A stretch of DNA of 64,000 nucleotides, from the IMG/VR virus record IMGVR_UViG_3300042516_001356. One strand, written 5' to 3'. This DNA comes from an uncultured virus (IMG/VR IMGVR_UViG_3300042516_001356) (taxonomy: Duplodnaviria > Heunggongvirae > Uroviricota > Caudoviricetes). Both the position numbers and the translations under genes were made by a program. Below the pieces are notes generated by a model, which had not been told where the DNA came from, ran no database searches, and saw only the letters and a program-made list of their open reading frames with translations. This document shows positions 10,054 to 43,254 of this stretch, one piece after another. How positions within the stretch are numbered: position 1 is the stretch's first letter; every line of letters begins with the position of its first letter.

Positions 10054-10335
10054 TTGAAACAGCATTTATGGAAAGATCAAGCCTTATGCTTGGGAATGGA
10101 CAACAATGCATTCTTTGATAAATACGAAGATTATGAAGAATCTAGAAAAGATATTGATGCACTTTGCAAACAATGCCCAGTAAAAAAAATATGTTTTGCC
10201 AACGGGGTCTCTGGAAAAGAATGGGGAGTCTGGGGTGGTGTTTATTTAGAGGGTGGAGAAGTTTCAAGAGAATTTAATAAGCATAAAACTAAAAAAGACT
10301 GGTATGAAACTTGGCAGTCTTTAACTATGGAATAA
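10054..10335 (+). CDS. whiB: WhiB-family Fe-S transcription factor
   Basis: W-x3-ALC...FF...C-x2-CPV-x3-C...GVWGG. Confidence 0.92.
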   Translation: MKQHLWKDQALCLGMDNNAFFDKYEDYEESRKDIDALCKQCPVKKICFANGVSGKEWGVWGGVYLEGGEVSREFNKHKTKKDWYETWQSLTME

Positions 10336-18045: not shown

Positions 18046-18047
18046 AT

Positions 18048-18749
18048 TTATCCTTTTATTAAGTTATTTTTAATTTCTTTTATTATATTTTTTTTATGCT
18101 TAAGCATTGAATAATAACTTTGCAATTGTCTAGTTTTATTTACTCTATAATCTTTTGCTTTTGTAACGTCTCCTGCATATTTCATAATTTTTTCGCTAGC
18201 ATAAAATTGTTTAAAAATAATTTTTTCTTCCGTATAGAATTTAATATACTGAAAAATATCTTCTTCTTTAATTTCAAATCTATTGTAATTATTTTTTAAA
18301 TAAAAAGCAAACTCAGTTGGACGAAACCACTTTCCAATATCAAAAATTCCAGGAATTGGTATGCATCTTTTAGTTATTTCATTATCTTCTAAAAATGGCA
18401 GCATCCCTGCAGACATTTTTAAAGAATTTTTCTCAGTAAAAAAAATAAACTGTTGAAAAAATGAAAAAAGTTTTTCTTTTTCTGAACGAACCATTACATG
18501 TTTATTGAAAAAGTCTTGATCGTATAAATTAGTAAATGTACCTGTTTGATTATCTTTTATTTCAAAATTATAATCATATATGGATTCTATTGAAAAAACA
18601 TTTTTCATGTATTCTTTTACTGATGGGCAAAAATTTACTACTGTATTTTTATCTTTTATATTTTTTAAAAATTGTTTATATATTGGCTCAGGCTCTTTAG
18701 CCCTTAGCCATTCTTCTTCAATACAGGCCCAATAAACAGTAATTGACAT
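18048..18749 (-). CDS. DUF6065-like / dUTPase-fold paralog 2 (divergent)
   Basis: EPEP, FCPSVKE, IPGIFDIGKWFRP, IKEEDIFQYIKF. Confidence 0.5.
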   Translation of the reverse strand: MSITVYWACIEEEWLRAKEPEPIYKQFLKNIKDKNTVVNFCPSVKEYMKNVFSIESIYDYNFEIKDNQTGTFTNLYDQDFFNKHVMVRSEKEKLFSFFQQFIFFTEKNSLKMSAGMLPFLEDNEITKRCIPIPGIFDIGKWFRPTEFAFYLKNNYNRFEIKEEDIFQYIKFYTEEKIIFKQFYASEKIMKYAGDVTKAKDYRVNKTRQLQSYYSMLKHKKNIIKEIKNNLIKG

Positions 18750-19924: not shown

Positions 19925-20647
19925 TTAATCGTATTGTTTTTTTGTCCAAAATGTTTTTTTATACCATCCTTTAAAAACACTACTAGCAGAATCACTATGA
20001 CTCTTTCCAATTTCTACCAGACCTTTTGTTTTTTCTGAGTTCCAGTCTTCTTGGCGAAACGGTATTAGTTGTGCTATTGGCGTTCCTTGCTCAATGAGTC
20101 CTGTAAATCCCTCTTTAAGGTAAAATGGAACATTTCCATCTTCGCTTAATACCAATCCTCCATCAAGCACTGCACTTAAAGTTGTAAATGGAAGATCGTG
20201 TCTATTTAGTGGATGAGTAAATAAAATACTATATCCTTTTGGAACGCCATAGGAAACTCCTGGGTGCCAAACAAATTCTGTAGGATAATGACCAATTGGA
20301 ACAAGTTTTTCACTTGCTACATTATTTCTGACATTTGGTGTGCCTTTTGCACCTTTTGGCCATAAAATAAATGGAACCCCGTCTCTTATTTCAACATATA
20401 GATCAAAAGGAAGGGTCATTACGTAGCCAATAGTTAATGAATCTAAAAATGGTACACATAATTTAACTGTTGACCTAATATTAAAATCATCACTAAACAT
20501 TACATCATCATAATATTGTGGTATTTTTTTATACCAATCTGGTACAACTTTTTTTGTTGGAACTATTGAGTTTGGATAAGTTGGAACGGCAGACTCATAT
20601 CTTAAAATTGGTTTTTGTTTTTTATTAAAAATACTTTTTTTAAACAT
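19925..20647 (-). CDS. DUF6065-like / dUTPase-fold paralog 3
   Basis: PDWYK, TVKLCVPFLDSL..GY, PKGYS, HPLNRHDLPF, GTPIAQLIPF. Confidence 0.65.
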   Translation of the reverse strand: MFKKSIFNKKQKPILRYESAVPTYPNSIVPTKKVVPDWYKKIPQYYDDVMFSDDFNIRSTVKLCVPFLDSLTIGYVMTLPFDLYVEIRDGVPFILWPKGAKGTPNVRNNVASEKLVPIGHYPTEFVWHPGVSYGVPKGYSILFTHPLNRHDLPFTTLSAVLDGGLVLSEDGNVPFYLKEGFTGLIEQGTPIAQLIPFRQEDWNSEKTKGLVEIGKSHSDSASSVFKGWYKKTFWTKKQYD

Positions 20648-21777: not shown

Positions 21778-22500
21778 TTATTTAAATTTTTTCTTAGAGT
21801 GATGGTTTTTTAAGTAATGACCTACCATTGTGCTATTAAAGTTTTTTTCTTGAATTACATTATTGTATTCACCATCTTCATAATAGTCAAAAGTAGAATC
21901 CCAATCATCTCGCTTAAAAGGAATAATTTGTACCATTGGAGTGCCCTTTTCAACGATGCCTTCAAAACCAGTTTTAACCCACATTGGAAAGACCAACTCA
22001 AGAGTTGAACTATCTGTATCTACAACTGCTGTAATTGCTTTAAATGCAAGATCGTTGTATCCAAATGGAGAAGTTATTAAACATGAATAGCCTTTGGGGG
22101 TTTGTGGTATCCAACAATTAAGATATTTATATACTACCTGATCATATCCTATTGGTGCTGGAATCTCCCTTGATGACTGACCATGTAATGTAAAAACATC
22201 CTGTAAAGTCTTCCAATATATATCAGGATACCCATTACCTTGTTCAACCATAACATCTGTCCATAAAGGGATAATGTATCCAGAACTTATGCTATCTAAT
22301 AATGGAACACATTTTTTGTATGTTGCGTTGGCAGTTCTGTTTCTAAAATGAAGTTTCCCATCTTGTGGATACCCAGGCAAATTTGCATAAGGTTCAGAAT
22401 TAGTAAACCACTTAGGAAGTTGTTTTACTGCAGGATATGGCTTAAGTTGTACGTCAAACTCAGTCTTACTTCTAGCCCTAAAGTTTATATTTTTTGACAT
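21778..22500 (-). CDS. DUF6065-like / dUTPase-fold paralog 4
   Basis: PKWF, TYKKCVPLLDSISSGY, TPKGYS, AVVDTD, GTPMVQIIPFKR. Confidence 0.65.
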   Translation of the reverse strand: MSKNINFRARSKTEFDVQLKPYPAVKQLPKWFTNSEPYANLPGYPQDGKLHFRNRTANATYKKCVPLLDSISSGYIIPLWTDVMVEQGNGYPDIYWKTLQDVFTLHGQSSREIPAPIGYDQVVYKYLNCWIPQTPKGYSCLITSPFGYNDLAFKAITAVVDTDSSTLELVFPMWVKTGFEGIVEKGTPMVQIIPFKRDDWDSTFDYYEDGEYNNVIQEKNFNSTMVGHYLKNHHSKKKFK

Positions 22501-26230: not shown

Positions 26231-26321
26231 AAATTAATTGTAGCAAAAAATGGGGAAAAATACAAGTATTCTTAATAGAAAAAATAAATAACATTTTTGT
26301 TATAAAACCCGACCCCGCTTG

Positions 26322-26395
26322 CGATCTGGACGGGACTTGAACCCGCAACCTTTACCGTGACAGGGTAACGATCTAACCAATTGATCTACCAGACC
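26322..26395 (-). tRNA. tRNA-Asp (GTC)
   Basis: Reverse complement: GGTCTGG acceptor, TTACC-CTGTCAC-GGTAA, T-loop TTCAAGT. Confidence 0.93.
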
Positions 26396-26435: not shown

Positions 26436-27458
26436 TTATGCTAGTTGCATAACATTTTGTACAACTTTTAGCAGACGATTTTTTTCTGCATTGATTGATG
26501 GATCAAAACCACTTGCTGATGCTAATAAACTTTCGTTATTACCACCACGAGCAGAACGGTACCAATCAAGACGCTCAGTTAATGCATTGAACGCACCCCA
26601 CGCACTACCAGCAATCATGCCATTAAATTCGCCAGTGTAGATGTCATTAATGGTATCAACTTTATTTTCCCATTTTTTAACAGCACCCTTAGCATCTTTT
26701 TCTGGCTTAGGATAAGCAGCAAGAATAATGTCGTTAAACATTTTAGCATCAACAGTCTTTTCAATCATTGCCTTAGCCATGATATCAAATTCATCCATGT
26801 ACGCATTAGCAAGACCTAAAGTCTCACGAGCAACTTGCACCTTACCATTGGCAGTTTGCGTGTGGCGAATCTTGAAAGATTGCTTGATACCCTTATTCTT
26901 TTTGCGACCTACGCCACCAAGAGCAAGGTTAAGAGTATTAGCACACACAACACGAACAGGTGTTATGCTTGCTTGAATAGCGATTGAGCCATCGTGTGAT
27001 GTGTTAATAAGCAAATAAGTCTTTACCTTATCTGCAACACCATTAGGGTCAAGAATTGTTTCACGCTCTAATGCTAGTGAGCCAAATACTACACGACCAC
27101 CACGAATTGAGCCAGCAGTCTCCCAACGTCCACCGCCATCAAGAATGTTATCACCAAATGAGAATAGTTCCTCATTTTGCAATGGCACATAACGCTCACC
27201 AACAATTCCCAAAACATCAGTTTGAGATTTATCAGTAGGGTTTGTACGCACTACATATTGGTAATTCTTATCAGATGTTAGCGCAGATGGAATTTCTAAT
27301 TCCTCTAAACGAACATTCCAATTATTAAGGTTAGCAGTCTCTAGCATTTCGCTAGTTGTTTTTTCATCTGTAAACACAGTACCTAAACCATGCCAAGCAG
27401 GTTCACGGAATGATGCAAAACTTGCTACACCATTTTGTGATTCTAAATCATGAGCCAT
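26436..27458 (-). CDS. DUF932/DUF945 (phage/plasmid LGT family) protein
   Basis: PAWHGLG, WETAGSIRGG, NTSHDGS, TPVRVVCANTL, IRHT; RBS GAAAGGA. Confidence 0.88.
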   Translation of the reverse strand: MAHDLESQNGVASFASFREPAWHGLGTVFTDEKTTSEMLETANLNNWNVRLEELEIPSALTSDKNYQYVVRTNPTDKSQTDVLGIVGERYVPLQNEELFSFGDNILDGGGRWETAGSIRGGRVVFGSLALERETILDPNGVADKVKTYLLINTSHDGSIAIQASITPVRVVCANTLNLALGGVGRKKNKGIKQSFKIRHTQTANGKVQVARETLGLANAYMDEFDIMAKAMIEKTVDAKMFNDIILAAYPKPEKDAKGAVKKWENKVDTINDIYTGEFNGMIAGSAWGAFNALTERLDWYRSARGGNNESLLASASGFDPSINAEKNRLLKVVQNVMQLA

Positions 27459-27484
27459 TTTTATCCTTTCGGTTGTTTTAATTA

Positions 27485-27513
27485 ATTTTAGCACTCATGG
27501 CTGACAATGTCAA
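27485..27513 (-). promoter_or_regulatory. Promoter with PafBC/RecA-NDp element
   Basis: TTGACA-T-TGTCAG-N10-TAAAAT. Confidence 0.75.
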
Positions 27514-27602
27514 TCAGGACTGGGGAAAATAGTTTAATCTTCTTAAATGGTATAAATCGGACATTTGGGATATTCCCCGAGGATTTTTGCTGGGGATTTG
27601 TG

Positions 27603-27629
27603 AGGCAGTTTAAAGACGTGCCCAGGTCC
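27603..27629 (-). ncRNA. 3' pseudoknot element, copy 4
   Basis: GGAC-CT-GGGCA-C-GTCT-TTAAAC-TGCCT. Confidence 0.7.
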
Positions 27630-27644
27630 TTTAGTAGCCCCCTA

Positions 27645-28055
27645 CTAAAACTCCACTCCACTAAGAGAACTAGAAACATAAGTTATCTTGTCAGTGTCAT
27701 ATGAGATTGCGTCAAAATCAATATCATGAATGATATCTTCTACATCTTCACCTGCAGGTACATTAATGGTCATTGAATATTCTACGGTTACCATGACCTC
27801 AACTTCATTAGTTAATTCAAATCCACAGATTTCAGCAATTGCTTCTGCCTGCTCTTTTGTGATATCTTGATTTTCTAATTCAGTCGTGGTCCACGTATGC
27901 ATTTGATCACGCATTGCTGTTAGGTTAGCAGCGCCTGTGTAGTCACGTTGTGTTACTCTTTGGATGTGTTGCTCCAGTGTTAGAATGCGTTCATTTTTTT
28001 CTGCAATCTGAGATCTAAGATAATCTTCAGTTGCATGTATTGTTGTTTGCTCCAT
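27645..28055 (-). CDS. Hypothetical early protein
   Basis: RBS GAAAGTAGG; coiled-coil N-terminus. Confidence 0.7.
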   Translation of the reverse strand: MEQTTIHATEDYLRSQIAEKNERILTLEQHIQRVTQRDYTGAANLTAMRDQMHTWTTTELENQDITKEQAEAIAEICGFELTNEVEVMVTVEYSMTINVPAGEDVEDIIHDIDFDAISYDTDKITYVSSSLSGVEF

Positions 28056-28077
28056 AAGGGGCCTACTTTCTTAGTTA

Positions 28078-28110
28078 GAGGGGGGCAGGTTGTCTACCCC
28101 CCCTGTTTAT
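28078..28110. terminator. Hairpin terminator
   Basis: GGGGGGCAG...CTACCCCCC stem between genes. Confidence 0.55.
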
Positions 28111-28281
28111 TTATTTAGTTGTTGATACCATTGCTAAACGACGAGAGCCGTTTGCTAACTGTAGCGATACTCTAGTTAGTTTAGAGTTGATAGGTGAGAA
28201 TTTTACAATTCTACCTGTAACGCCAGTTTTGCTTGTGGTGAATAGATCACCTAGTTGATATGTGTATCCGCCTAGTGTCAT
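28111..28281 (-). CDS. Small SH3-like beta protein (paralog of 28905-29072; not in ORF track)
   Basis: MTLGGYTYQLGDLFTTSKTGVTGRIVK; RBS AAAAGGA. Confidence 0.7.
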   Translation of the reverse strand: MTLGGYTYQLGDLFTTSKTGVTGRIVKFSPINSKLTRVSLQLANGSRRLAMVSTTK

Positions 28282-28372
28282 GATTTTCCTTTTCTGTTTA
28301 TGGTGGTTTGTATTATTTAATTTTACTAGATTTTGACGGGGGAGTCAAATACCCTCCCCCATCTCTATCTAA

Positions 28373-28795
28373 TTAGAGATAACGAGCAACTGCGTTGTAT
28401 GTAGAAGTATTAACTACTTCCTCATCTGTCATCTTGAGGATACGAATAGCGTTAGACATTTCCTCTTTCTGCTCATTGTAAGTATGAGAGTGGATAACCT
28501 CAAAATCCTTTTCAGGCTCTTTAGGAAATTCTCCATCTTTGAGAATTAAATCAAAATCAACATTTAGTGTTGAGTTCCAAGAACGATAATTGGTTCTGAT
28601 GTTCTCAGCCTTAGCAATTTTACCTACTGCGAACTCAGCAAGTTCTTTTTGCCAAGCCTTGTAAGCCTTTTGATACTTTGCTTCGTTTTCACCTTGTGTA
28701 GCATAGTCTTTTTCTAGTTGTGCTAGTTTAGTTTCTAGTGCTTTGATTACTCTAGCAGTAGGGATTTTTACTGAGATTGCTTTTCCTCTTGACAT
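28373..28795 (-). CDS. Hypothetical early protein
   Basis: RBS AAAGGA; own promoter. Confidence 0.75.
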   Translation of the reverse strand: MSRGKAISVKIPTARVIKALETKLAQLEKDYATQGENEAKYQKAYKAWQKELAEFAVGKIAKAENIRTNYRSWNSTLNVDFDLILKDGEFPKEPEKDFEVIHSHTYNEQKEEMSNAIRILKMTDEEVVNTSTYNAVARYL

Positions 28796-28827
28796 GGTGT
28801 TCCTTTTCTTTAGTGGGTTATATTTCT

Positions 28828-28849
28828 AGTATAGGGGGTTGGTCTGACA
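28828..28849 (-). promoter_or_regulatory. Promoter with PafBC/RecA-NDp element
   Basis: TGTCAG-ACCAACCCCC-TATACT; no -35 match. Confidence 0.75.
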
Positions 28850-28856
28850 TTGTGGT

Positions 28857-28885
28857 GAGCAGTTTTAGTAGTCATGCTCAGGACT
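28857..28885 (-). ncRNA. 3' pseudoknot element, copy 5
   Basis: AGTC-CT-GAGCA-T-GACT-ACTAAAAC-TGCTC. Confidence 0.7.
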
Positions 28886-28904
28886 TTTAGCGTTTGCTAA
28901 AGTG

Positions 28905-29072
28905 TTATGACTTTGCTGTCCAAGTTGTCCAGCGAGTTGCGCCAGCAACATCTAACTTAACACGAACATTACCATTTGCCTGTGGCACGATTTCTTTGAT
29001 AACGCCTGTGGCTTTGGACTTTTGGCTTGTGTAGGTATCCCCTACTTTGTAAGTTGCGTTTGATACGGACAT
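28905..29072 (-). CDS. Small SH3-like beta protein
   Basis: MSVSNATYKVGDTYTSQKSKATGVIKEI; RBS AGGAG. Confidence 0.7.
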   Translation of the reverse strand: MSVSNATYKVGDTYTSQKSKATGVIKEIVPQANGNVRVKLDVAGATRWTTWTAKS

Positions 29073-29258
29073 GGTTCTCCTTTTTGTTGGTTTTTGCTTA
29101 CTATACAAGTCTAACATTTTTATCCCAAAAATACAAGTTATATCACAATAATCTCATATTTTGAGATGTGATTTAGACCACACTTAATGACCCATACCTG
29201 CGAACAATAGGCAGCAGAATATGATTGATAGTATTATTAACATTTCCAAGCGATACTC

Positions 29259-29987
29259 CTATTTTTTAGATGACGAGAATACGATGTCGCTCTTTGAGTA
29301 TACACACAATCCGCATGATACGCAAGCACTTCCACTATTTGAGATAAGGGGGATAGACTTTAGATTCTCAGGACACTTAGCGCCAGGACGGTTGAATAAC
29401 TCTTTCATGTCTGCTTGACCAATAGCAAAATTCTTTGCAAGGTATGCAAGACGCACTCCGTGATCTTTCTTTAAACTAACACCAATATCTTTATTCTCGC
29501 TATCTGTTGAATAGTATAAAGATAGATTAGGGATGTCCTTGAGCATTACCGCTGCAGAATGTACTCTAGTGTATACCCAAAACTTTACGTCACTATGATA
29601 CTCTATAACTTCTTTCCATGCTTTTGTGTAAGTGTCATTAAAGAAATCTCCGTCCCAGTGGATACGGAATAGTTTTTGTGCATTCTTCTTATCACAATCT
29701 TTTTTAAAATCAGCAATCATTACATATAGCAATGCCGTCATAGTTTCATGATCAGCGTTTTTCAATAACTCCCAATTGTGCAGGAGATTAGTTTTTACTC
29801 CTTTGAATAACTTTTCAAGTTTTCCTGCGTAGCAGACACTTTCGCAGACACTAGTAGCCCCAGGACATGAGAATTCTTTTCCAGCAGGTAATCCAAAAGT
29901 ATTGGCAATAGCGGACTGTTTTCCATTTTTTGTGACAAGGTTAGTCACCTTTCTATCATGTGATCTTTTTAACTGTGGTGTGTTCAT
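29259..29987 (-). CDS. GP88-family Cys-cluster protein
   Basis: FGLPAG..SCPGATSVCESVCYA, FRIHWDGDFF, FWVYTR, ACVSCGLC. Confidence 0.8.
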   Translation of the reverse strand: MNTPQLKRSHDRKVTNLVTKNGKQSAIANTFGLPAGKEFSCPGATSVCESVCYAGKLEKLFKGVKTNLLHNWELLKNADHETMTALLYVMIADFKKDCDKKNAQKLFRIHWDGDFFNDTYTKAWKEVIEYHSDVKFWVYTRVHSAAVMLKDIPNLSLYYSTDSENKDIGVSLKKDHGVRLAYLAKNFAIGQADMKELFNRPGAKCPENLKSIPLISNSGSACVSCGLCVYSKSDIVFSSSKK

Positions 29988-30069
29988 ATAAAAATTTTAG
30001 CATAATTTGGAGAAAATATCAAGCCTTCTTAATTGATACAAATCGGACAAATCGCTACTCGGGCGGCCT

Positions 30070-30321
30070 TTACTGTAACATCATTAAATCAAATTGGTCG
30101 TATTCGCCAACTTCAATTATTTCTCTTTCACCAAAATCATTTACAATTTCTAAAGTATATCCATCAGGTAGTGATACTATATCTACAATAGACACAACTT
30201 CATCGCCAATTAGAATACAATCTTCAATCTCTAATTGACCTGAAGTTAATATATCAACTTTTACATAGTCCACAATCTGAATGGTATCATCATTTTCTAG
30301 ATCAATCATCTTAGTCCTCAT
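30070..30321 (-). CDS. Hypothetical acidic protein
   Basis: ORF in operon. Confidence 0.6.
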   Translation of the reverse strand: MRTKMIDLENDDTIQIVDYVKVDILTSGQLEIEDCILIGDEVVSIVDIVSLPDGYTLEIVNDFGEREIIEVGEYDQFDLMMLQ

Positions 30322-30598
30322 TTACTGGGTCAATAAACCACTCTAGGTGGTGCTGGCTTACTATTGCGCTAGCAGGTGCGTGTGTCATTCCACGATATAA
30401 AATTTGAAAGTCGCCAACCATAGGCATCTCAATCATGCGTTGATAGTCCTCATCATAGAATGCGTCAATCGCTTCAATACAAGGCTTAACCATCTCTGCT
30501 GGTACTGGTGGATAGTGATTACCCTTTAAGTGATAAAGTAATTGAGTTTCTAAGTCTAAGACTTCATCTTTAATTCCTAGTGCTGTTATTGATCCCAT
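30311..30598 (-). CDS. Hypothetical protein
   Basis: HLKGNHYPPVP; translationally coupled. Confidence 0.7.
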   Translation of the reverse strand: MGSITALGIKDEVLDLETQLLYHLKGNHYPPVPAEMVKPCIEAIDAFYDEDYQRMIEMPMVGDFQILYRGMTHAPASAIVSQHHLEWFIDPVNED

Positions 30599-30807
30599 TA
30601 TTTAATTACCACATTTCCGTTAGTGTAGAAGGTCTTTGTATACATTTTACCTGTTGGGTCAGATAAATTATAGGTTGCGTATTCTTTAGCATCGCCAAAG
30701 TCTACACATTTAGTCCAAGCGTTTACTGCCTCTAGCATGTCGCTAACTCGCAGGGTATGAACTAACTCTCCGTCATACGAAGTAGTAAGTGAATAATTAT
30801 ATTCCAT
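30598..30807 (-). CDS. Hypothetical protein
   Basis: TAATG-coupled ORF. Confidence 0.65.
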   Translation of the reverse strand: MEYNYSLTTSYDGELVHTLRVSDMLEAVNAWTKCVDFGDAKEYATYNLSDPTGKMYTKTFYTNGNVVIK

Positions 30808-30992
30808 TATGCGTTCTCCTTAGTTTTAAATAATTGGTGGTAGTCCTGTATTTCATCAGCAGGGATATTGTAAGGATTACACTCACACGCCCATACATCA
30901 TAGTCTATAGCATTTCCTACGAATTGCCAACCTGCGCCATAGCAATCGCTATGAGCAAGAATATCCATTAGTGCATTTTTAACTTTACCCAT
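30807..30992 (-). CDS. Small Cys-containing protein
   Basis: CYGAGW...CECNPY; coupled. Confidence 0.65.
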   Translation of the reverse strand: MGKVKNALMDILAHSDCYGAGWQFVGNAIDYDVWACECNPYNIPADEIQDYHQLFKTKENA

Positions 30993-31137
30993 TAGTTATA
31001 TCCCTTCGCACAATACGAGCATAGCATCATAGTTTTACAATAGCAATCAGACACGCTAACACGCTCAACGTTAGAATAGTAGTCATCATAGAATTCATCA
31101 AAGTAATCTTTCATAGTTTTCCTTTCGTTATATCTTT

Positions 31138-31275
31138 ATCCTAGCAGACTGGACTGACGTTTTCAAACGACACGCCGTAAAGATCTGGGGAATCTGGGGT
31201 GTGTTTTTAATCACACGTAAAGGCCTGTGGACAAACCTGTGGAAAACGCCTCGGGGATTTTTAGAACAAACGTTC
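31138..31275 (-). promoter_or_regulatory. Regulatory block: RecA-NDp-type promoter, GACAC motif, CRP-like box, two DnaA-like boxes, LexA-like box
   Basis: CGTCAG-N10-TAGGAT (31138-31159); CGACACGCCG (~31168); TGTGT-N6-TCACA (31200-31215); TGTGGACAA (31226); TGTGGAAAA (31238); GAAC-N4-GTTC (31264-31275). Confidence 0.7.
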
Positions 31276-31458
31276 GGACAGTTTTATATCATGTCCAGGA
31301 TTTCATTTTATACTTTAAGAAGTTTACGCAATTCATTACGCAATCTACGAATTTCTTTTTGTTGTGCAATATTTTGTTTCCAAAATAAAAACATAACAGT
31401 TAAGCAACCAGTTAGCGCAATTATTATTGCAATTAAATCTAAATCAGTTAACATTTAT

Positions 31459-31671
31459 TTACCCCTTCCACATTTCAGATCCAACAGGAACTAAACCAAT
31501 TTCATCAATTCCACAAGCCTTCTCAAATCTTGCGAAATCAAAGTTTTCATTATCAGATTTGAACCACTCAGCAAACTCATTTACTAAATCCTCATAAGTA
31601 ATTTGTGGAATTTCATCAACAAATCCTTTTAGAATATTTGCGGTTTTAATATAGTCTTTTCTAGTCATCAT
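31459..31671 (-). CDS. Hypothetical protein
   Basis: MTRKDY...DNENFDFARFEKAC. Confidence 0.7.
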   Translation of the reverse strand: MMTRKDYIKTANILKGFVDEIPQITYEDLVNEFAEWFKSDNENFDFARFEKACGIDEIGLVPVGSEMWKG

Positions 31672-31816
31672 TAGTCGTTCTCCTTAGTGGTAAATAAAGT
31701 GCCTAGTGCAAAATTTTCACATTCGCACTTTTCTACATCATAGTCAAGATCATTACCCCAAAAAATAAGACCTTGCCCATTACACTCATCACAATCAAAA
31801 GCCATTACAGAGTTTA

Positions 31817-31999
31817 TCATTTAGCCAACCCCCTCAATGTTCCACGAACGCCAAGAGCGTCGCAAGACATTTTTACAGAGATACCAACAGGCAAAGCCTT
31901 TGGGTATTCGTTGATGAATTGAGATACAGCACCCTTTGAAGGAACGCTGATTTTTTTTACAGAACCATTAAAGGTTTCTAGTGTTATAGTGTAAGTCAT
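31817..31999 (-). CDS. Small protein (paralog of 35042-35227)
   Basis: RBS GAAAGGTGG; NGSVK...F...Y..ALPVG. Confidence 0.7.
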   Translation of the reverse strand: MTYTITLETFNGSVKKISVPSKGAVSQFINEYPKALPVGISVKMSCDALGVRGTLRGLAK

Positions 32000-32033
32000 T
32001 TCTGACCACCTTTCTTTATTGTTTGATAGGACT

Positions 32034-32099
32034 ATCCTACCAAAAATCCCTGACATTTTCAACCTGCTAGGGGTGTGTTGCCTTGTGATTTATCTCACA
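32034..32099 (-). promoter_or_regulatory. RecA-NDp-type promoter plus perfect CRP box
   Basis: TTGAAA-A-TGTCAG-N10-TAGGAT; TGTGA-TTTATC-TCACA at 32084-32099. Confidence 0.75.
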
Positions 32100-32219
32100 A
32101 AGCCCCTTCCTGAAATAAGCCTATTTCTAGGTCAAGCAATTCCTGCGGGGTAGCCTCAGATAAATCTACCCAGCCAGCACCATTTTCATCTAATCTAAAA
32201 ATTTCAATGTATCCCATTA

Positions 32220-32420
32220 TTATTCACCAACCTTCACCGCTATTGTGCGGAATTTATTTCTGAAAGTTCCAGAGTTAATTTCCACCAAATAGGCTTCGGT
32301 ATTTTCTCCATACCAAATTGCTTTAGGGTGTTTTTCTGCTGAGATAATTTCTCCACGCAAAGTTTTTGAGTTATAAGTCTTGCCAATTAGCAAGTTTTCT
32401 ATTGTGTATAAGTTAGCCAT
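32220..32420 (-). CDS. Hypothetical protein
   Basis: RBS GAAAGGAAG. Confidence 0.7.
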   Translation of the reverse strand: MANLYTIENLLIGKTYNSKTLRGEIISAEKHPKAIWYGENTEAYLVEINSGTFRNKFRTIAVKVGE

Positions 32421-32457
32421 TGTTAGCCACTTCCTTTCGTTATTTTCTTACTATGTA

Positions 32458-32644
32458 AGTCTATCAAAATTAGCAGACATTTACAACTTACTAGCCAGTA
32501 ATTCCAAATAATGAGACGCTCAGAGGTGTGATATGCCCCACAAAATTTCTGTGATCTTAAACACATCTCGTAAGTTATCCACAGGCTGTGGACGACACGC
32601 CAGGGGAGTCGGGTTTTTTATGCAGTGATCTGAATAATTATTCT
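32458..32644 (-). promoter_or_regulatory. Regulatory block: RecA-NDp-type promoter, TACT-N4-AGTA palindrome, two CRP-like boxes, DnaA box, GACAC, ARG-like box
   Basis: TGTCTG-N10-TAGACT (32458-32479); 32488-32501; 32527-32542; 32550-32565; TTATCCACA 32575-32583; TGAATAATTATTCT 32631-32644. Confidence 0.7.
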
Positions 32645-32911
32645 TTTACGAATAAATAAAATGCATAAGATAAACAGATCATTGAAAACCAAAACAATGC
32701 GTTACCACTTACAAAAAAGGTTTGATAAAAGTTATTCATTTATTTTTTTCCTGTTCTAATAAATCGTTATTAAATAGTTTTGCAATTCTAATTTGTTCTT
32801 TCTTTGGAGTGTTAGCCCAAAGATAACCAAGTAAATAGTGTGCGCCTGAGTCTCTATCGTTTCCACGAATTTGACGGCAGACATTTAGTACATCTTGAAG
32901 TTCAATACTCA

Positions 32912-33094
32912 TTAGTTAGACACTTTCCAATCTGTCCACATAGGCAGACGCTCTGGGTCAGTATCGTTATACCAACGCTCAATATTTTGTTCACAACTTT
33001 CGCAGAATGTGAATTGGTCATCTCCTACCATAGAGATAGCAGATTTATTTGGTGTATGCTCTTTGCATACTATTGTTTTTTCTAGTGTTATCAT
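32912..33094 (-). CDS. Small Zn-binding protein (paralog of 33921-34094)
   Basis: CKEHTPNKSAIS...FTFCESCEQNI. Confidence 0.7.
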   Translation of the reverse strand: MITLEKTIVCKEHTPNKSAISMVGDDQFTFCESCEQNIERWYNDTDPERLPMWTDWKVSN

Positions 33095-33315
33095 TTTAGA
33101 CAACCTTTCTTTTTTGTTAGTTAATTTTATTTTATTAAGTTATTATTTACACATTACGCATATTGGTTGGGCTATCCAACCGCCACCGCATTTTTCACAT
33201 TTATTGTAGCCCATAAGTTGAGCCATAGTATCTGTTATATCTTTTTCAAATATTCTGTTTGTCATTTTGACCTTTCTTGTTAAATAACCTTTATTTAACT
33301 TTCTTTATACTAGTA

Positions 33316-33493
33316 AGTATAACAGGGGGGTCTGACATCTACTAGCCAGTAAGTAGGGCAAAACGGACATTTTGATTTGTGATGTACGCCACATTTCTAT
33401 AGGTATGCCAATTAAGGCTCTGAGCAGGGCTTTTATAGAGGGGGGTAAATGTGATACGTATCATGTGGATAAACCTGTGGATAACTCCTCGGG
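33316..33493 (-). promoter_or_regulatory. Regulatory block: RecA-NDp promoter, TACT-N4-AGTA, CRP-like boxes, tandem DnaA boxes
   Basis: TGTCAG-N10-TATACT (33316-33337); 33339-33352; TGTGA-N6-CCACA 33378-33393; TGTGGATAA at 33464 and 33476. Confidence 0.72.
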
Positions 33494-33625
33494 TTTTTTA
33501 TTGCAATTTATTTTTATGTTTTATTTTTCTAGAATATTTTTTCTTATTTGGAATTGCAGTAGCCGCATTACTGCGGCGCAATTCTTGAATACGAATTATT
33601 TTATTTTTTATTTCTTTTAACATTT

Positions 33626-33817
33626 TTATTCTCCTCTACTTTCTGCGTCTGCTTCCCAATCAGATAACCAGACACGATAAGCAATTGGATCGCAATCTTT
33701 TACAATTTGAGAAGGGTAAAAAGTTATGCCACCAATTTCCACAGTGGGATAACATTCATCAAGCATTTCATTAAATTCATTTTCTAAATCTTGCTGAATT
33801 TCAAAATCAGTTTTCAT
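33626..33817 (-). CDS. Hypothetical acidic protein
   Basis: FNEMLDECYP...DPIAYR. Confidence 0.7.
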   Translation of the reverse strand: MKTDFEIQQDLENEFNEMLDECYPTVEIGGITFYPSQIVKDCDPIAYRVWLSDWEADAESRGE

Positions 33818-33920
33818 TTATTTACTCCCAACAATTAGAGCAAGTAATTATATCTTGCTCATCAAAGAATTCACTAGAAATTTTATTATCGCACAAGCGA
33901 CATGCTAAGGTTGTTATCAT

Positions 33921-34094
33921 TTACTTACCAACCTTCCATGAAGTCCAGTATGACATGAAGTCATTATCCTCACGAAGGTGAGAAGTTATATTCTGCTCAC
34001 AATCCTCGCAGAAAGTAAATCGCTCATCATGAACGATAGAGATAGCATTTTTATTAGGTGTATGCTTACACACTTTTTCTTTTAGTGAATTCAT
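33921..34094 (-). CDS. Small Zn-binding protein (not in ORF track)
   Basis: MNSLKEKVCKHTPNKNAISIVHDERFTFCEDCEQNI; RBS GAAAGGA. Confidence 0.75.
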   Translation of the reverse strand: MNSLKEKVCKHTPNKNAISIVHDERFTFCEDCEQNITSHLREDNDFMSYWTSWKVGK

Positions 34095-34143
34095 TTTGAA
34101 TTCCTTTCTTTAGTGAGAGTTTCTCACTTTCTTTATACTGGTA

Positions 34144-34559
34144 AGTCTAACATAGACCACTGACATTTTCGCTATTACTGACCAGTATATGAGACAATTT
34201 TTATGTGATCCGCAACACATTAGCCTGTGGATAACTCAGCAGTATACTCACCAGTATAAAAGTGTCTGTGGATAACCCCTGTGGATAACTCTAAAAAACC
34301 CGAGTCCAATGTCCGATTTGTACTATTTGTCGTGTGGTGTATATCACTAATTACAGGCATGTAATTCACGGCGTGTCGTCTTGACTTTTCAGGTATTGTG
34401 TGATAGTATTCTACTATAAATAAATAAAGAAAGATAGTCTCAATGAGCCTACCAAATAAGGCGAACAAGTGTTCGCATGAGCGTAGCAAGTAAGTGAGGC
34501 AAATCACACAAAAAAAGACAGCGTGTCGCCTTGACTTTTCAAGGTTTATATGATAGTCT
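34144..34559. promoter_or_regulatory. Divergent control centre: leftward RecA-NDp promoter, two tandem rightward sigma-A promoters, three DnaA boxes, CRP-like and LexA boxes
   Basis: TGTCAG-N10-TAGACT (-, 34144-34165); TTGACT-N17-TAGTAT (34381-34409) and TTGACT-N17-TAGTCT (34531-34559), both with extended TG; TGTGGATAA at 34226, 34267, 34280; CGAAC-N4-GTTCG 34462-34475. Confidence 0.8.
34437..34500 (+). ncRNA. Structured leader RNA 1 (two UGAGC/CAARUAA internal loops)
   Basis: Nested stems GTCTCA/TGAGGC, CTAC/GTAG, GCGAAC/GTTCGC. Confidence 0.55.
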
Positions 34560-34584
34560 TACGACATACAATTAAATAAGAAAT

Positions 34585-34617
34585 CCTAGTGAGCCTCGCA
34601 AGAGCAAATAACCTAGG
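34585..34617 (+). ncRNA. Structured leader RNA 2 (one UGAGC/CAAAUAA loop, GNRA cap)
   Basis: CCTAG-TGAGC-CTC-GCAA-GAG-CAAATAA-C-CTAGG. Confidence 0.55.
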
Positions 34618-34666
34618 TCAGCAAAAGGTTAAAAGGTTTAACCGCATTAAAAGAAAGGTTCATTAA

Positions 34667-34825
34667 ATGAACACTATATATAACGAAATCGCTGATGAGT
34701 TTGGCTCATCTGCTCTATCTATCAATCATCCTCAACCTGAGATTAGCATTCGCCGTGCTGCTCAACTCATTGACGAAATGGGTTTTGATGTTGCTATGGA
34801 ATATGTTAAGGCAGGTGGTCGCTAA
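34667..34825 (+). CDS. Small early protein (not in ORF track)
   Basis: RBS GAAAGG; MNTIYNEIADEFG. Confidence 0.65.
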   Translation: MNTIYNEIADEFGSSALSINHPQPEISIRRAAQLIDEMGFDVAMEYVKAGGR

Positions 34826-34929
34826 TGACTATCGCTAACATGGATAAGATTAACGAAGCCATAGAGGCTTTACAAGAAGCAAACAAAGTGTTTGTGGAAA
34901 TGTTTGGAATTGACGAGGAGAATAACTAA
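34825..34929 (+). CDS. Small acidic peptide (not in ORF track)
   Basis: TAATG coupling; RBS AGGTGG. Confidence 0.5.
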   Translation: MTIANMDKINEAIEALQEANKVFVEMFGIDEENN

Positions 34930-35041
34930 TTATGGAAACAGAAGGAATTGGTAGCGTGATATTTTTTGTAGTATTTATGTCCACCATGCTATTTTTTATA
35001 GCAGCAGATAGACAAGGTTGGTTTAACTAGTGAAGGAACAA

Positions 35042-35227
35042 ATGATACCAGTTCAATTAACATCAGTAAATGGCGCAGTCAAAGACATGCCGTTTGATAG
35101 CAAAGAAAAAGTGTTAGAGTTTATTGACAAATACGCTGACGCATTACCATTGGGCACAGCCGTCAACATTGACGCACCGCTCATTGGTATTCACTCAGGT
35201 TGGATACAAGGACGCAAGAGTGTCTGA
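35042..35227 (+). CDS. Small protein (paralog of 31817-31999)
   Basis: RBS GAAGGA; NGAVK...F..KY..ALPLG. Confidence 0.7.
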   Translation: MIPVQLTSVNGAVKDMPFDSKEKVLEFIDKYADALPLGTAVNIDAPLIGIHSGWIQGRKSV

Positions 35228-35499
35228 GTATTCTGCTGAACAGTTAAGACGCAAAGCCCACCTAGAAAATGGTGGGACACTTGCTAACTATGATAGGACA
35301 CACTACACAGAGTCAGAGTAGTGTGCTCACTATTTTTTTTCATTTTTATTTTTAAAATTACATATCATACATCTAAGAAAAATATTCAGATTTTCTCAAA
35401 ATGAAAATTTTTTCAGATTTGGCAGGGTATAGGGTATAATTATTATATGAAACAACGAATACTAGTCTCTATCATAATAATTGGTTTGGCAGCATTGAT

Positions 35500-35652
35500 A
35501 TGGCTATTTTAGACAATCTTGAAGCATCTTTGCCAGATGACTATGGTATTCCAAAGAAAACAGTTAACGATGTAATTAAAGAAATGCTTGAAGATCCAGA
35601 ACACCATAAGTTAATGGAACGTCTAAAATACATGGAGGATCATGGAATCTAA
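35500..35652 (+). CDS. Small hypothetical protein (not in ORF track)
   Basis: MAILDNLEASLPDD..., 50 aa. Confidence 0.45.
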   Translation: MAILDNLEASLPDDYGIPKKTVNDVIKEMLEDPEHHKLMERLKYMEDHGI

Positions 35653-35865
35653 CATAGACAAACCAAAAGATATTCCTATTATAAACAAACCTTGTGATTG
35701 TAATTGTCAAACCACAGTAAATGACTTACTACAATCCCAAACCTCATTTGAGGAATAATGAATTATTTAGTTCACACAGATCCATATGATCATTCGGATA
35801 GAGGTTTGTTAATTTTTGCAATTTTGTCGGGGGTAGCAATAATATTTTGGTACTTTAAAAAGTAA

Positions 35866-36462
35866 CTACAATATCTCCAATTTTATCGGGGCACCAATAA
35901 GACTCTCACTAACACTGGTCCACAACTGTGAGGACATACTAGTATTAATTTTAGCAGACATACCTATAGACTCCATAACGTAGTTATATCCTCCAGACTT
36001 GGTTTGAACTTTGTTCCAAACCCCACTATCATATATCAAGGTTTGGGAATCAAATACAAAAAGATAATAAACCTTTTTCTCATTTTCGGCGGGGACAGAA
36101 GACCAATCCTGGTCTGACTTAGCAAGACACACATAATACTTAGCACTATTATCCACTACGCTAGATATCATGGCATCTAAGGTTTGATATTTACCTAGCC
36201 TGGATCCAGAGAAGGTTAGTGTGTTATTTGCGTATACACCCGATTTAACAGAGAAACTTTCGCCTGACTCTAAAGACATGTCTACGCTGACGGAATGGCT
36301 TCTATTAGGCTGCCAGTCGTTTATCAGGCCATGTTCTGTAAAGGTGTTAGCAATAAGTTCTTCCAAGAACTCACTTGTACAAGGAAGCCTATAAACTGAA
36401 TGATGTGTTTTTAGTTTGCTTGTCAAACCTTCAATAAGGATTTGCTTAATCATATCTAGCAC
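35866..36462 (-). CDS. PD-(D/E)xK restriction-endonuclease-like protein
   Basis: EFLEELIA helix, HSVSVDM, FSVKSG, SQLW; lone antisense gene with its own -10. Confidence 0.55.
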   Translation of the reverse strand: MLDMIKQILIEGLTSKLKTHHSVYRLPCTSEFLEELIANTFTEHGLINDWQPNRSHSVSVDMSLESGESFSVKSGVYANNTLTFSGSRLGKYQTLDAMISSVVDNSAKYYVCLAKSDQDWSSVPAENEKKVYYLFVFDSQTLIYDSGVWNKVQTKSGGYNYVMESIGMSAKINTSMSSQLWTSVSESLIGAPIKLEIL

Positions 36463-36500
36463 ATCTAAGTATAACCCATATCGGGATATTAAGCAAACAT

Positions 36501-36583
36501 AGATACTACATCCGATTAGACATTTGTGGACTGCGTAGCAGTCGTATTATGTCTTATGATGGTTTGATATCTCTATTTTCGGC
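36501..36583 (+). repeat. Rod-hairpin element copy C
   Basis: AGATA/TATCT, CATC/GATG, AGACAT/ATGTCT, GACTGC/GCAGTC; flanks match copies A and B. Confidence 0.55.
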
Positions 36584-36624
36584 TTAACTTATATCCCGCC
36601 TAAATAAATAGATATAATTGCTAT

Positions 36625-36903
36625 ATGGCAACAGCGCATTCATTAGTCACACTTAGCGATTCTTCTGCTACTCGCTTGACGCCATTAGGCGCACACGGCG
36701 GAATGGATATTACCCTACAAAATGTTAACGCAACTGGATATATTTATATTGGTGGCGAAGGAGTATCATCTTCTAACTACGGGTTTAGAATTATGCCAAA
36801 CCATTCAATCTCTTTTGAACTTGTATCCAATGATGCGCTATATGCAACTTCATCCGTAAACTCTATGAACGTTGCTATGATTCAAATCGGCTTGGAGCCT
36901 TAA
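36625..36903 (+). CDS. Hypothetical virion-associated protein
   Basis: ITLQN...IYIGGEGVSSSNYGFRI; leaderless promoter. Confidence 0.65.
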   Translation: MATAHSLVTLSDSSATRLTPLGAHGGMDITLQNVNATGYIYIGGEGVSSSNYGFRIMPNHSISFELVSNDALYATSSVNSMNVAMIQIGLEP

Positions 36904-37350
36904 GTGGCAAGATTTACGCATCCCGCTTTTGGAGATGTCGGCGGACTCACAACCGAAATAAAATCTTATTTTCCAGTATGGTCTGGAACTGGATTAGTCT
37001 TTACTGGAACTCCTGCAACAGGAACATATATAAAAATAGGAAATTTTATCCAAGTTCAAATTAGCGTTGACTTTGATAATGTAAGTAATTTCGGAACTGG
37101 ACAATATTTCTTAACACTTCCGTTTCCATCAAAATACCATACGGATGTTTATGGTGGCTCCGTTCATGATATTGTAAATCAAGGTGTGGATCACTATAGT
37201 CTTAAAGGACATTTAGATGATGGCAGTTCTACTTTTACAATTTGGAATATTAAATCTTCGGCAGCAGATGAACCATTTGACCACAACAGTCCAATTGGTT
37301 TAACAACAAATGATTTATTTCATATGTCTTTTTCATACATTTGTGAATAA
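36904..37350 (+). CDS. Tail-fibre-tip-like beta protein
   Basis: GTYIKIGN...GTGQYFLTLPF...FSY. Confidence 0.6.
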   Translation: MARFTHPAFGDVGGLTTEIKSYFPVWSGTGLVFTGTPATGTYIKIGNFIQVQISVDFDNVSNFGTGQYFLTLPFPSKYHTDVYGGSVHDIVNQGVDHYSLKGHLDDGSSTFTIWNIKSSAADEPFDHNSPIGLTTNDLFHMSFSYICE

Positions 37351-42567: not shown

Positions 42568-43254
42568 ATGAATATTACTTTTACCAACACTATTCCTTTT
42601 GAAATAGATCCCCCACAACCCGCATCTAAGTTTATACCTGAATGGTACACAAACACAGACTCATACATTGGTAAAAATAAAAAACCAGATGGTAACGGTG
42701 GTACAACGGGAACGATAAAACGTTGCATGCCAGTGTTTGATGCTATAACTGCAGGATATATAATCTCGTCACCCGCTGATGTCTACGTTAGCCTTGTAGA
42801 TGGTTATCATTACTTTGAATGGGCTTCTTTTAATTTAATTAGTCTGCATTCTCTAGAACAAGCCATTGAGCATCCAGCCCGAAATAGACAAGATGTACCT
42901 GTACCCAAGTGGGAGAATCCTTGGTCTATTAAAACACCTAAAGGATATTCAACCTTATTTGTTCAACCGTTTCATAGAGAATCGGTTTTTACCATTCTTC
43001 CAGGAATTGTGGATACCGACACTTACACGGCGCCAATTAATTTCCCTATGATTATGAATGATCCTGACTTTGAGGGGTTAATTCCAAAAGGAACACCTAT
43101 TGCACAGGTTATTCCCTTCAGGCGTGATACTTGGCATATGAGTTTAGGATCTGACAAAGAACTTAAAGAACAACATAGTATTAGGTCAAAACTAAACAGC
43201 AAATTTTTTGATAGATATAAAACTATGTTTTGGAATAAAAAGGAGTATAGGTAA
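42568..43254 (+). CDS. DUF6065-like / dUTPase-fold paralog 5
   Basis: PEWY, TIKRCMPVFDAITAGY, TPKGYS, LPGIVDTDTY, KGTPIAQVIPF. Confidence 0.65.
   Translation: MNITFTNTIPFEIDPPQPASKFIPEWYTNTDSYIGKNKKPDGNGGTTGTIKRCMPVFDAITAGYIISSPADVYVSLVDGYHYFEWASFNLISLHSLEQAIEHPARNRQDVPVPKWENPWSIKTPKGYSTLFVQPFHRESVFTILPGIVDTDTYTAPINFPMIMNDPDFEGLIPKGTPIAQVIPFRRDTWHMSLGSDKELKEQHSIRSKLNSKFFDRYKTMFWNKKEYR

Follow-up and report, generated by a model that had tools for sequence, protein, structure and literature searches.

Cassettes of candidate host-regulator sites before the small genes of a probable freshwater actinophage

Why should a phage crowd the short spacers between its small genes with motifs resembling the operators of several unrelated host regulators? 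This question is raised by the uncultured virus IMGVR_UViG_3300042516_001356 (Caudoviricetes), of which a stretch of 64,000 nucleotides, hereafter the window, was analysed. The original prediction for positions 29,140 to 34,560 described the spacers as mosaics of DnaA, CRP, LexA and other boxes in shuffled order, and read them either as a sensor panel for host replication, cAMP and damage status or, preferably, as a sponge that titrates host regulators or coats incoming DNA with host proteins. Here, we propose that the spacers are repeated promoter-operator-terminator cassettes of a small-gene, host-takeover-like module, with parts that match the sites of actinobacterial host regulators, a reading to which we give a probability of about 55%.

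The phage is probably a lytic, uncultured actinophage of fresh or lake water with a genome of ~110 kb. The actinobacterial host guessed in the prediction is reasonable because the portal and gp88-like proteins have their nearest counterparts in Streptomyces and Mycobacterium phages, and a WhiB protein is encoded in the window and in all five near-complete relatives (104-115 kb). The stretch is present in 24 lake-water or freshwater metagenome runs, all as contigs, with no RNA run among them. Among freshwater actinobacteria, 'Ca. Nanopelagicales' are available as isolates, together with phages that infect them (PMC10202952). The portal shares 46% identity with portals of Streptomyces cluster-BE phages, and the 242-residue protein encoded at 29259-29987 (Pfam GP88) shares 41% to 55% identity with Mycobacterium and Streptomyces phage proteins. 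Leftward genes extend from 34094 to ~12.9 kb, and those on the other side of the divergent region read rightward from 34667. For comparison, a scan of viral contigs gave 189 related stretches, and 80 loci were retained from these. The family set, from which the family counts below are taken, consists of the reverse-complemented window piece 27001-37000 and 44 of these loci; loci with more than half of their 15-mers common to an earlier locus were left out, as were 12 without upstream flank. One relative, G003, is complete (109,757 bp, circularly closed assembly), and its segment at 84.3-88.8 kb is collinear with the window early region.

Order and spacing of motifs in the spacers

The motifs listed in the original prediction are present where it placed them, ATCTCA-N5-TGAGAT and AATTACA-N4-TGTAATT included (Table 1), and they are largely confined to the early region, where every non-coding spacer at 28.8-34.7 kb contains some of them. 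None of the 28 matches to six motif types between 28790 and 34700 falls in coding DNA. Within the whole window, six of the eight perfect copies of TGTGGATAA fall inside 32575-34288, all seven of TGTGAT-N6-CACA inside 29167-34219, and all three of GACACGCC (at 31169, 32594 and 34370) inside 31169-34377. The 1675 nt of early spacers were compared with 1000 dinucleotide shuffles of the same spacers, and not one shuffle reached the observed counts of TGTG-N8-CACA (6), TGTGGATAA (6), GACACGCC (3), TACT-N4-AGTA (5) and AAWCGGACA (3), so that enrichment over a composition-matched background holds for five motifs; a single shuffle reached the count of GAAC-N4-GTTC (2). Elsewhere in the window, 3683 nt of intergenic DNA contain two AAWCGGACA and no copy of the other five motifs. 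The ARG-like box of the prediction is at chance level (1.29 expected; 78 of 100 shuffles reach the observed number). The motifs are retained in 44 related contigs, and the G003 segment contains 4 of 4 TGTGA-N6-TCACA, 3 of 3 GGCGTGTC and 3 of 4 TGTGGATAA of that genome. A scan of 27-37 kb against Rfam returned one sub-threshold snoRNA match and nothing else.

The shuffled order of the prediction was not borne out. Read in gene direction, blocks A, B, C and E follow one plan, namely, an A/T-run with CCCGAG, a pair of DnaA boxes, one or more CRP-like palindromes, TACT-N4-AGTA or GGCGTGTC, the element ATGTCAG, an extended -10 and a ribosome site. All four window blocks that have DnaA boxes carry CCCGAG, the pair, the palindrome and the promoter in this order, and blocks D and G consist of a palindrome followed by a promoter. 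In the family set, 85 promoters have both kinds of motif within 260 nt; in 68 of them every DnaA box precedes the proximal palindrome on the upstream side, and in 17 every box lies downstream of it. We are confident that these spacers are cassettes.

The first component of the cassettes is ATGTCAG, a recurrent element that the prediction did not recognise as a core promoter. The sequence TGTCWG-N10-TAnnnT occurs 318 times in the family set, against 2-50 for the spacings N6-N15 compared with it. After removal of duplicates, 311 distinct promoters remain. The early-gene strand carries 281 of them, and in 265 cases a ribosome site and a start codon come within the next 78 nt. Their consensus is aAAATGTCAGtc.....Tg.TA.aaT, and the DNA upstream of AAATGTCAG is unconserved, with no conserved hexamer at the -35 place; AAATGTCAG and CCTGTGGATAAC are the phage-derived motifs with extended flanks. 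The window has six TGTC(A/T)G promoters, all on the minus strand before genes, and a seventh of the CGTCAG variant (Table 1); six of the seven in G003 lie at 85.9-88.9 kb. For PafBC, the published motif is tGTCgg(N10)tA(N3)T; its 5' portion occupies -28 to -23, the GTC never varies, and a -35 is lacking (PMC8635444). The GTC element, the exact N10 spacing and the lack of a conserved -35 are all found in the phage, whose core promoter matches, at the level of sequence, the PafBC-dependent ('-26 element', RecA-NDp) architecture. A conserved element ~11 nt before the -10 also recalls the MotA boxes of T4.

The second component is a palindrome of CRP type. TGTG-N8-CACA occurs 315 times in the family set against 2-33 at other spacings, and its consensus TGTGAt.TA.aTCACA equals that published for GlxR, TGTGANNTANNTCACA (PMC4254451), central TA included. 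Its placement is fixed relative to the promoter. Palindrome start and TGTC are most often separated by 44 (42 cases), 54 (16) or 63-64 nt (17), and 94 of 117 proximal palindromes lie within 1 nt of 44, 54, 64 or 84 nt. Block D illustrates retention of motifs despite sequence turnover, for which the prediction had asked relatives to be compared: across 32 distinct orthologous copies, conservation is limited to the palindrome, AATGTCAG, TGnTA and the ribosome site, and the intervening DNA has been replaced. The interval between palindrome and AATGTCAG is 26 nt in three unrelated sequence versions and 36 nt in three relatives, where a 10-nt insertion leaves the helical phase unchanged. Such phased spacing is the pattern expected of an activator bound on one face of the helix.

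DnaA boxes form the third component, with the extended family consensus CcTGTGGATAACtt. Half of the perfect boxes in the family set (96 of 192) lie inside 40 bp of a second box that deviates by no more than one mismatch, and the start-to-start distances of boxes in the same orientation are mainly 12 (44 cases), 11 (16) and 13 (8), that is, gaps of 2-4 bp. The window contains six perfect and three degenerate boxes, among which three pairs are direct, with gaps of 3, 3 and 4 bp, and one is inverted. The pairs sit immediately after the previous operon, at the upstream edge of the cassette. No intrinsic terminator was found at the DnaA-pair or T-run sites, and the RNA structure of these segments is unremarkable (z -1.4 to +1.3), which argues that they act as DNA. 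In E. coli, DnaA can serve as a roadblock.

A further class of promoters has a -35. Two rightward promoters of block A carry GACAC directly upstream of the -35 hexamer, and GACACGCC often adjoins such a hexamer, a link to promoters that the prediction had missed. Modules are recombined to some degree: among 197 distinct instances of GGCGTGTCG (GCGTGTC), 51 adjoin TTGMxx-N16-18-TAnnnT and 9 a PafBC-type promoter; the other 137 often directly adjoin a palindrome or a DnaA box. GACAC is the published WhiA motif (PMC3781837), and WhiB is described as a link between WhiA and SigA immediately before the -35 (PMC10243135, PMC3781837). The WhiB encoded by the phage is thus a possible partner for these promoters.

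With regard to LexA, the actinobacterial and Gram-positive box is (T)CGAAC-N4-GTTCG(A). The boxes named in the prediction are present; they are weakly enriched and may instead be RNA hairpins or terminator tails. GAAC-N4-GTTC occurs three times in the whole window against 0.68 expected, a number reached by 4 of 100 shuffles, and 24 times across 650 kb, where other spacings give 1-14 copies. The positions it takes in the window, behind a terminator hairpin and within a transcribed leader, do not overlap a promoter, and one of the sites scores as a hairpin. GCGAAC-N4-GTTCGC of block A occupies the exact place of TGTGAC..ATCACA in relatives; this is a swap of modules, and the incoming module could be a LexA-type site or a hairpin. 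Terminator-like hairpins form a family of 58 distinct instances, with stems GAGCA/TGCTC (49), AAGCA/TGCTT (6) and GGACA/TGTCC (3), changes that preserve pairing, around a conserved loop of 11-13 nt (GTTTTAnATCA), with an A-run before and a T-run after. The two members in the window (Table 1) are likely two-way terminators.

Candidate readers of the sites and competing explanations

Profile searches, for which 14 reference genomes served as positive controls (HTH_Crp_2 found in 14, cNMP_binding in 11, DnaA_C in 10), detected HTH_Crp_2, cNMP_binding and DnaA_C in none of the five near-complete relatives. Among the 137 open reading frames (ORFs) of at least 60 aa in G003, no WYL family and, WhiA/WhiB aside, no HTH or sigma family was found, so that WhiB stands alone there as a recognised transcription factor. 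A Pfam DNA-binding family at E <= 1 was likewise absent from 29 small proteins of the window. Since no phage homologue of CRP or DnaA and no DNA-binding family came to light, host factors would be the simplest readers of sites equal to host consensus sequences. Many of the tiny early proteins (32-61 aa) encoded at 30992-34094 have two CxxC pairs and look zinc-ribbon-like; two of them (32912-33094 and 33921-34094) are paralogues, with a 79-nt repeat at 78% identity.

From these elements, the following course of events can be proposed. Each short operon would have its own cassette, in which the host activator PafBC, reported to be activated by single-stranded DNA (ssDNA; PMC11804915), would adapt RNA polymerase-SigA to the TGTCAG-N10-TAnnnT promoter. 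One or two CRP/GlxR palindromes upstream, at distances of whole helical turns, would place the activator facing the polymerase. DnaA bound to the pair at the upstream edge may act as a roadblock or insulator, as a regulator, or as an anchor for incoming DNA, and the GACAC element adjoining the -35 of the second promoter class may allow co-activation of WhiA type by the phage WhiB. We infer binding by host PafBC, CRP, DnaA and WhiA, the early expression and the role of the DnaA pairs from sequence. The balance leans slightly towards actual use of host PafBC, CRP and DnaA by the cassettes. The full wiring, in which the core promoters would respond to incoming DNA through ssDNA-activated PafBC alone, cAMP-CRP at the phased upstream sites would tune their output, DnaA pairs would insulate operons or hold the entering DNA in the way suggested for T5, and host WhiA would work with phage WhiB at the second promoter class, is possible but rather doubtful.

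Several points weigh against this proposal. Under the published PafBC numbering, the palindromes are centred at about -64.5, -74.5 and -84.5, off the class I positions of E. coli, which are -61.5 and -71.5. The WhiA motif has only 5 nt, and GGCGTGTCG stands beside a promoter in only 60 of its 197 instances. The family loci are mutually related, so the family-wide counts are of non-independent events. The actual host may lack PafBC, CRP or WhiA, and since no RNA run contains the region, start sites, timing and the label 'early' are inferred. Small zinc-ribbon-like phage proteins of unassigned function could bind DNA. Finally, the cultured Streptomyces phage Karimac has cassettes in the same places with other motifs (GCCGCCCCGG, CAAAAGATCTTG and canonical TTGAC-N17-TAGACT), which could not be matched to host regulators, and not a single CRP, DnaA or PafBC-type element in 14 kb, which fits phage-encoded binders equally well.

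The last two points lead to a different explanation, fairly unlikely in our judgement, in which the motifs are operators for phage-encoded proteins, such as the zinc-ribbon-like ones, that would have evolved or would copy CRP, DnaA and PafBC specificities without involvement of the host regulators. Besides the lineage-specific motifs of Karimac, it draws on AAAWCGGACAT, which follows the phage lineage because it is common to the phage family and Karimac; on TACT-N4-AGTA, ATCTCA-N5-TGAGAT, AATTACA-N4-TGTAATT, TGAGCCTAnCAAATAAG and CCCGAG, which match no host site that can be named; and on the ~22 uncharacterised small proteins of the region, several with CxxC pairs. It has to face three independent motifs whose sequence and spacing each agree with a published host consensus (9-mer DnaA box, GlxR 16-mer with its central TA, and PafBC motif with N10), and the lack of a detected phage homologue of these regulators. 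The sponge preferred in the original prediction, whether by titrating DnaA, CRP and others off the host chromosome or by coating incoming DNA, is very unlikely. Perfect boxes of high-affinity type are indeed concentrated in the early region, where the 11-mer CTGTGGATAAC has five copies against 0-2 in sampled Actinomycetota genomes of 1.2-1.5 Mb, and replicated phage genomes would multiply them. The 11-mer occurs at least once in 230 of 401 sampled Actinomycetota genomes, a listing without taxonomy or clustering that carries little weight; the tally includes one match in each of the unpublished genomes G156, G182 and G326, and is 227 of 398 without them. The E. coli datA locus is a cellular precedent for DnaA titration. 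The sites keep their distance, phase and order relative to promoters, none of which a sponge needs; one of its supposed operators is the core promoter itself, and a genome offers ~9 DnaA boxes and 7-9 palindromes, in one copy at early expression. Instead of the many position-indifferent sites of a datA-like locus, there are fewer than 10 of each kind. Titration may occur as a side effect of many replicated genomes, but fixed distance, phase, order and scarcity of sites favour the other half of the prediction, a panel of sensors integrated in promoters.

Other explanations concern the DnaA boxes or the cassettes as DNA. The closest precedent for the paired boxes comes from T5-like phages, which are reported to carry ~8 DnaA boxes, paired at 3 bp and scattered along ~3 kb of the terminal repeat with the pre-early genes; through membrane DnaA bound to them, entry of the DNA has been proposed to stop (Davison, bioRxiv 10.1101/866236). 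An array of this type, TT(A/T)TNCACA in pairs ~3 bp apart and about as numerous, is found in the window, with 8-9 boxes mostly paired (gaps of 2-4 bp) over 31.2-34.3 kb beside the divergent region, and the syntenic gp88-like block of cluster-BE Streptomyces phages lies in a long terminal repeat (two places per record). That the region enters first and is held by membrane-associated DnaA during small-gene expression, with the remainder of the genome following, is nevertheless unlikely: the T5 model is itself a proposal, the assembly of G003 closes circularly, terminal-repeat status is suggested by the cluster-BE phages only, and the phage boxes are located within promoter cassettes between genes, not in one untranslated block. 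We give hardly any credence to a replication origin. Box pairs followed by a G+C cluster and A/T-rich DNA would suit one, as would the minimum of the cumulative GC skew at 33-34 kb, but that minimum coincides with the switch of transcription direction, the pairs are spread across four cassettes over 3 kb, no DnaA-trio-like repeats were seen by eye, and the G003 replication genes (DnaB-like helicase, Pol III alpha and RecA-like protein, at 32.7-39.8 kb) are ~45-50 kb distant; the combination typical of an oriC (box cluster, DnaA-trios and unwinding element near replication genes) is not found. Also in favour, more divergent relatives have an ORF-poor stretch of ~500 bp located ~7.5 kb downstream of the gp88-like gene (L067 15300-15800; also in L046, L047, L050, L052, L055, L056, L058, L061, L064, L069 and L076). 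There, iteron-like repeats (TGTTTGGATA 5-6 times, CTCCACT three times) precede 3-5 perfect DnaA boxes that all point the same way, two of them paired across a 3-bp gap. The stretch resembles an origin of plasmid type or a region at a genome end; no counterpart was found in the window. As to gene shuffling, the same block D cassette-gene junction has three different upstream neighbours among 32 relatives, and many relative contigs end inside this region. That the cassettes are mainly homologous sequences for such exchange, with incidental resemblance to host sites, is highly improbable, for it leaves exact consensus matches, N10 spacing and helical phasing unexplained; as a second role, shuffling is compatible with promoter-operator-terminator cassettes.

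Phage early promoters are usually seen as strong constitutive promoters of host type, or as sites for phage-made factors. In contrast, a whole family of abundant freshwater actinophages, all uncultured, appears to assemble its first promoters out of sites for global regulators of the host, namely, the DNA-damage activator PafBC, CRP, DnaA and perhaps WhiA. If the proposal holds, sigma adaptation would here be exploited by a virus in nature, the alarm of the cell at incoming DNA would become the start signal of the phage, and infection success would be linked to the nutrient, replication and damage status of the host. It would also add to T5 a second, independent instance of DnaA-box pairs, the function of which could be tested by comparison, and the cassettes could serve as ready-made regulated promoters for low-G+C actinobacteria. 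A limited literature search returned no paper describing such cassettes in phages and none joining DnaA boxes, phage genomes and titration; CRP sites with phage early promoters appeared only in a general review.

Feature map and genomic surroundings

The features of the early region and its borders are collected in Table 1.

Table 1. Coordinates of features in and around the early region (positions in the window; strand '.', none assigned)
Feature	Position	Strand	Remarks
~22 small genes (32-95 aa) and 242-aa gp88-like gene	28905-34094	-	leftward; ~7 short operons
Block A, divergent control region	34095-34666	.	
A, PafBC-type promoter	34144-34165	-	leftward
A, TACT-N4-AGTA	34176-34187, 34245-34256		
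A, CRP-like palindrome	34204-34219		
A, DnaA boxes	34226, 34267, 34280		perfect; last two a pair, 4-bp gap
A, CCCGAG with A-run	34292-34304		
A, AATCGGACA	34310-34318		
A, near-CRP palindrome	34333-34348		
A, AATTACA-N4-TGTAATT	34349-34366		
A, rightward promoter, GGCGTGTCG then TTGACT-N17-TAGTAT	34370-34409		copy at 34520-34559
A, GCGAAC-N4-GTTCGC	34461-34476		flanked by TGAGCnTAnCAA repeats
Block B cassette	33266-33497	-	ATG at 33265; ribosome site
B, A-run with CCCGAG	33488-33497		
B, DnaA-box pair	33464-33484		perfect, starts 33464 and 33476; 3-bp gap
B, TGTGATACGTATCA palindrome	33450-33463		
B, CRP-like palindrome	33378-33393		
B, AAACGGACA	33361-33369		
B, TACT-N4-AGTA	33340-33351		
B, PafBC-type promoter	33316-33337	-	
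B, TACTAGTAAGTA	33308-33319		
Block C cassette	32421-32735	-	ATG at 32420
C, ARG-like TGAATAATTATTCT	32631-32644		one mismatch; chance level
C, A-run with CCCGAC	32608-32620		
C, GGCGTGTC	32594-32601		
C, inverted DnaA-box pair	32575-32583, 32587-32595		first perfect, second degenerate
C, CRP-like palindromes (two)	32550-32565, 32527-32542		
C, TACT-N4-AGTA	32489-32500		
C, PafBC-type promoter	32458-32479	-	TGTCTG
Block D cassette	32000-32100	-	ATG at 31999
D, CRP-consensus palindrome TGTGATTTATCTCACA	32084-32099		26 nt before AATGTCAG
D, PafBC-type promoter	32034-32055	-	
Block E cassette	31115-31307	-	ATG at 31114
E, terminator hairpin	31276-31296		GGACA/TGTCC
E, GAAC-N4-GTTC	31264-31275		
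E, CCCGAG	31250-31255		
E, DnaA-box pair	31226-31246		degenerate, starts 31226 and 31238; 3-bp gap
E, CRP-like palindrome	31200-31215		
E, CCCAGAT	31183-31198		two copies
E, GGCGTGTC	31169-31176		adjoins TTGAAA
E, promoter CGTCAG-N10-TAGGAT	31138-31159		
Block F	29988-30069	-	
F, AATCGGACA	30041-30049		
F, sigma-70-type promoter TTGATA-N17-TAAAAT	30022 to 29994		near-consensus; ends 6 nt before gp88-like ATG (29987)
Block G	29073-29258	-	ATG at 29072
G, CRP-like palindrome	29167-29182		adjoins the next
G, ATCTCA-N5-TGAGAT palindrome	29151-29167		
G, extended -10 TGTTAGACT	29108-29116		
Spacer just left of the predicted range	28796-28904	-	PafBC-type promoter 28828-28849
Hairpin TGAGCA/TGCTCA, terminator family	28856-28880		A-run on one side, T-run on the other
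DUF932 gene promoter	27485-27513	-	TTGACA overlaps TGTCAG-N10-TAAAAT: -35 plus PafBC-type element
Phage WhiB homologue	10021-10332	+	72% identical to WhiB of G003

The gp88-like gene has no ribosome site, and its mRNA is probably leaderless because the promoter of block F ends so close to the start codon. Leaderless mRNAs are common in actinobacteria.

Beyond the early region, the window (~36% G+C) encodes a portal, a protease, tail fibres, a class II ribonucleotide reductase, glycosyltransferases and four tRNAs (Gly-GCC, Glu-TTC, Met-CAT and Asp-GTC; 5310-5540 and 26321-26395). A near-identity DNA search of a phage collection gave no match to the stretch. Glycosyltransferases, a methyltransferase and a NAD-dependent sugar epimerase are clustered on the minus strand at 12866-18749, a region 85% identical to G003 over 5 kb. 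The epimerase shares 47% to 54% identity with its nearest bacterial relatives, which belong to Saprospiraceae, Parcubacteria and others, not to Actinobacteria, and thus yielded no clue to the host. Four paralogues of phrog_7084 (a PHROG family of unknown function) are distributed over both arms (3601-4386, 19925-20647, 21778-22500 and 42568-43254). In G003, six paralogues combining an fn3 domain with a glycine-rich domain (PF21722), at 67.5-74.8, 97.6-98.9 and 100.1-101.3 kb (L093, L094 and L095), are probably fibre or decoration proteins.

Likeness to known systems

A syntenic counterpart is the terminal repeat of the cluster-BE phage Karimac (NC_048724), which has the same gene order (DUF932/DUF945 protein, gp88-like and many small genes), one cassette per gene, a -10 TAGACT and AAAWCGGACAT in common with the phage family, and differs by its G+C hairpin terminators, its GCCGCCCCGG and CAAAAGATCTTG motifs, its canonical -35 and the absence of CRP, DnaA and PafBC-type elements. 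In Karimac (L096, 1113-10109 and 11582-11941), nearly every small gene of the terminal repeat has a cassette composed of a G+C hairpin, GCCGCCCCGG, CAAAAGATCTTG, a TTGAC-type -35 and TAGACT, and the 360-bp non-coding end of the block contains three CGGACA motifs and GGGGCATAT-like repeats. The cassette plan is therefore old, and the inserted sites are lineage-specific. As composite units, the phage cassettes also recall the PeSLs of T4-type phages, described as terminator/promoter repeats mediating modular exchange (PMC4122927), in which terminator-plus-early-promoter units flank small variable genes with differing neighbours (PMC2839356, PMC4122927); the phage cassettes, at 100-300 bp, exceed them in length and include several additional motifs resembling protein sites.

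With regard to their individual parts, the core promoters resemble the PafBC-dependent, sigma-adapted promoters of mycobacteria and other actinobacteria in their TGTC(A/T)G, 10 nt and TAnnnT, with invariant GTC and no conserved -35. They differ in that seven copies within ~7 kb stand before small genes of a phage, A or T takes the place of a weakly conserved g at position 5, and an extended -10 TG is usually present. The palindromes share with CRP/GlxR operators and class-I-type activation the 16-bp TGTGA-N2-TA-N2-TCACA upstream of a promoter, at distances differing by 10 bp, but here they are paired with a PafBC-type core promoter, lie somewhat off the classical positions as described above, and often have CCACA or ACACA as the right half-site in the window. 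Likewise, promoters co-activated by WhiA and WhiB (sepX type) have GACAC just upstream of the -35, and the phage encodes a WhiB; the phage motif is the 11-mer ACGGCGTGTCG, about a quarter of the GGCGTGTCG instances (51 of 197) adjoin a -35/-10, and the identification rests on 5 nt. Finally, the DnaA-box pairs share with the iss array of T5-like phages some eight consensus or near-consensus boxes, a 3-bp spacing and ~3 kb of DNA with first-expressed small genes; in T5, the pairs belong to inverted repeats of an untranslated block, whereas in the phage they mark the upstream edges of promoter cassettes.

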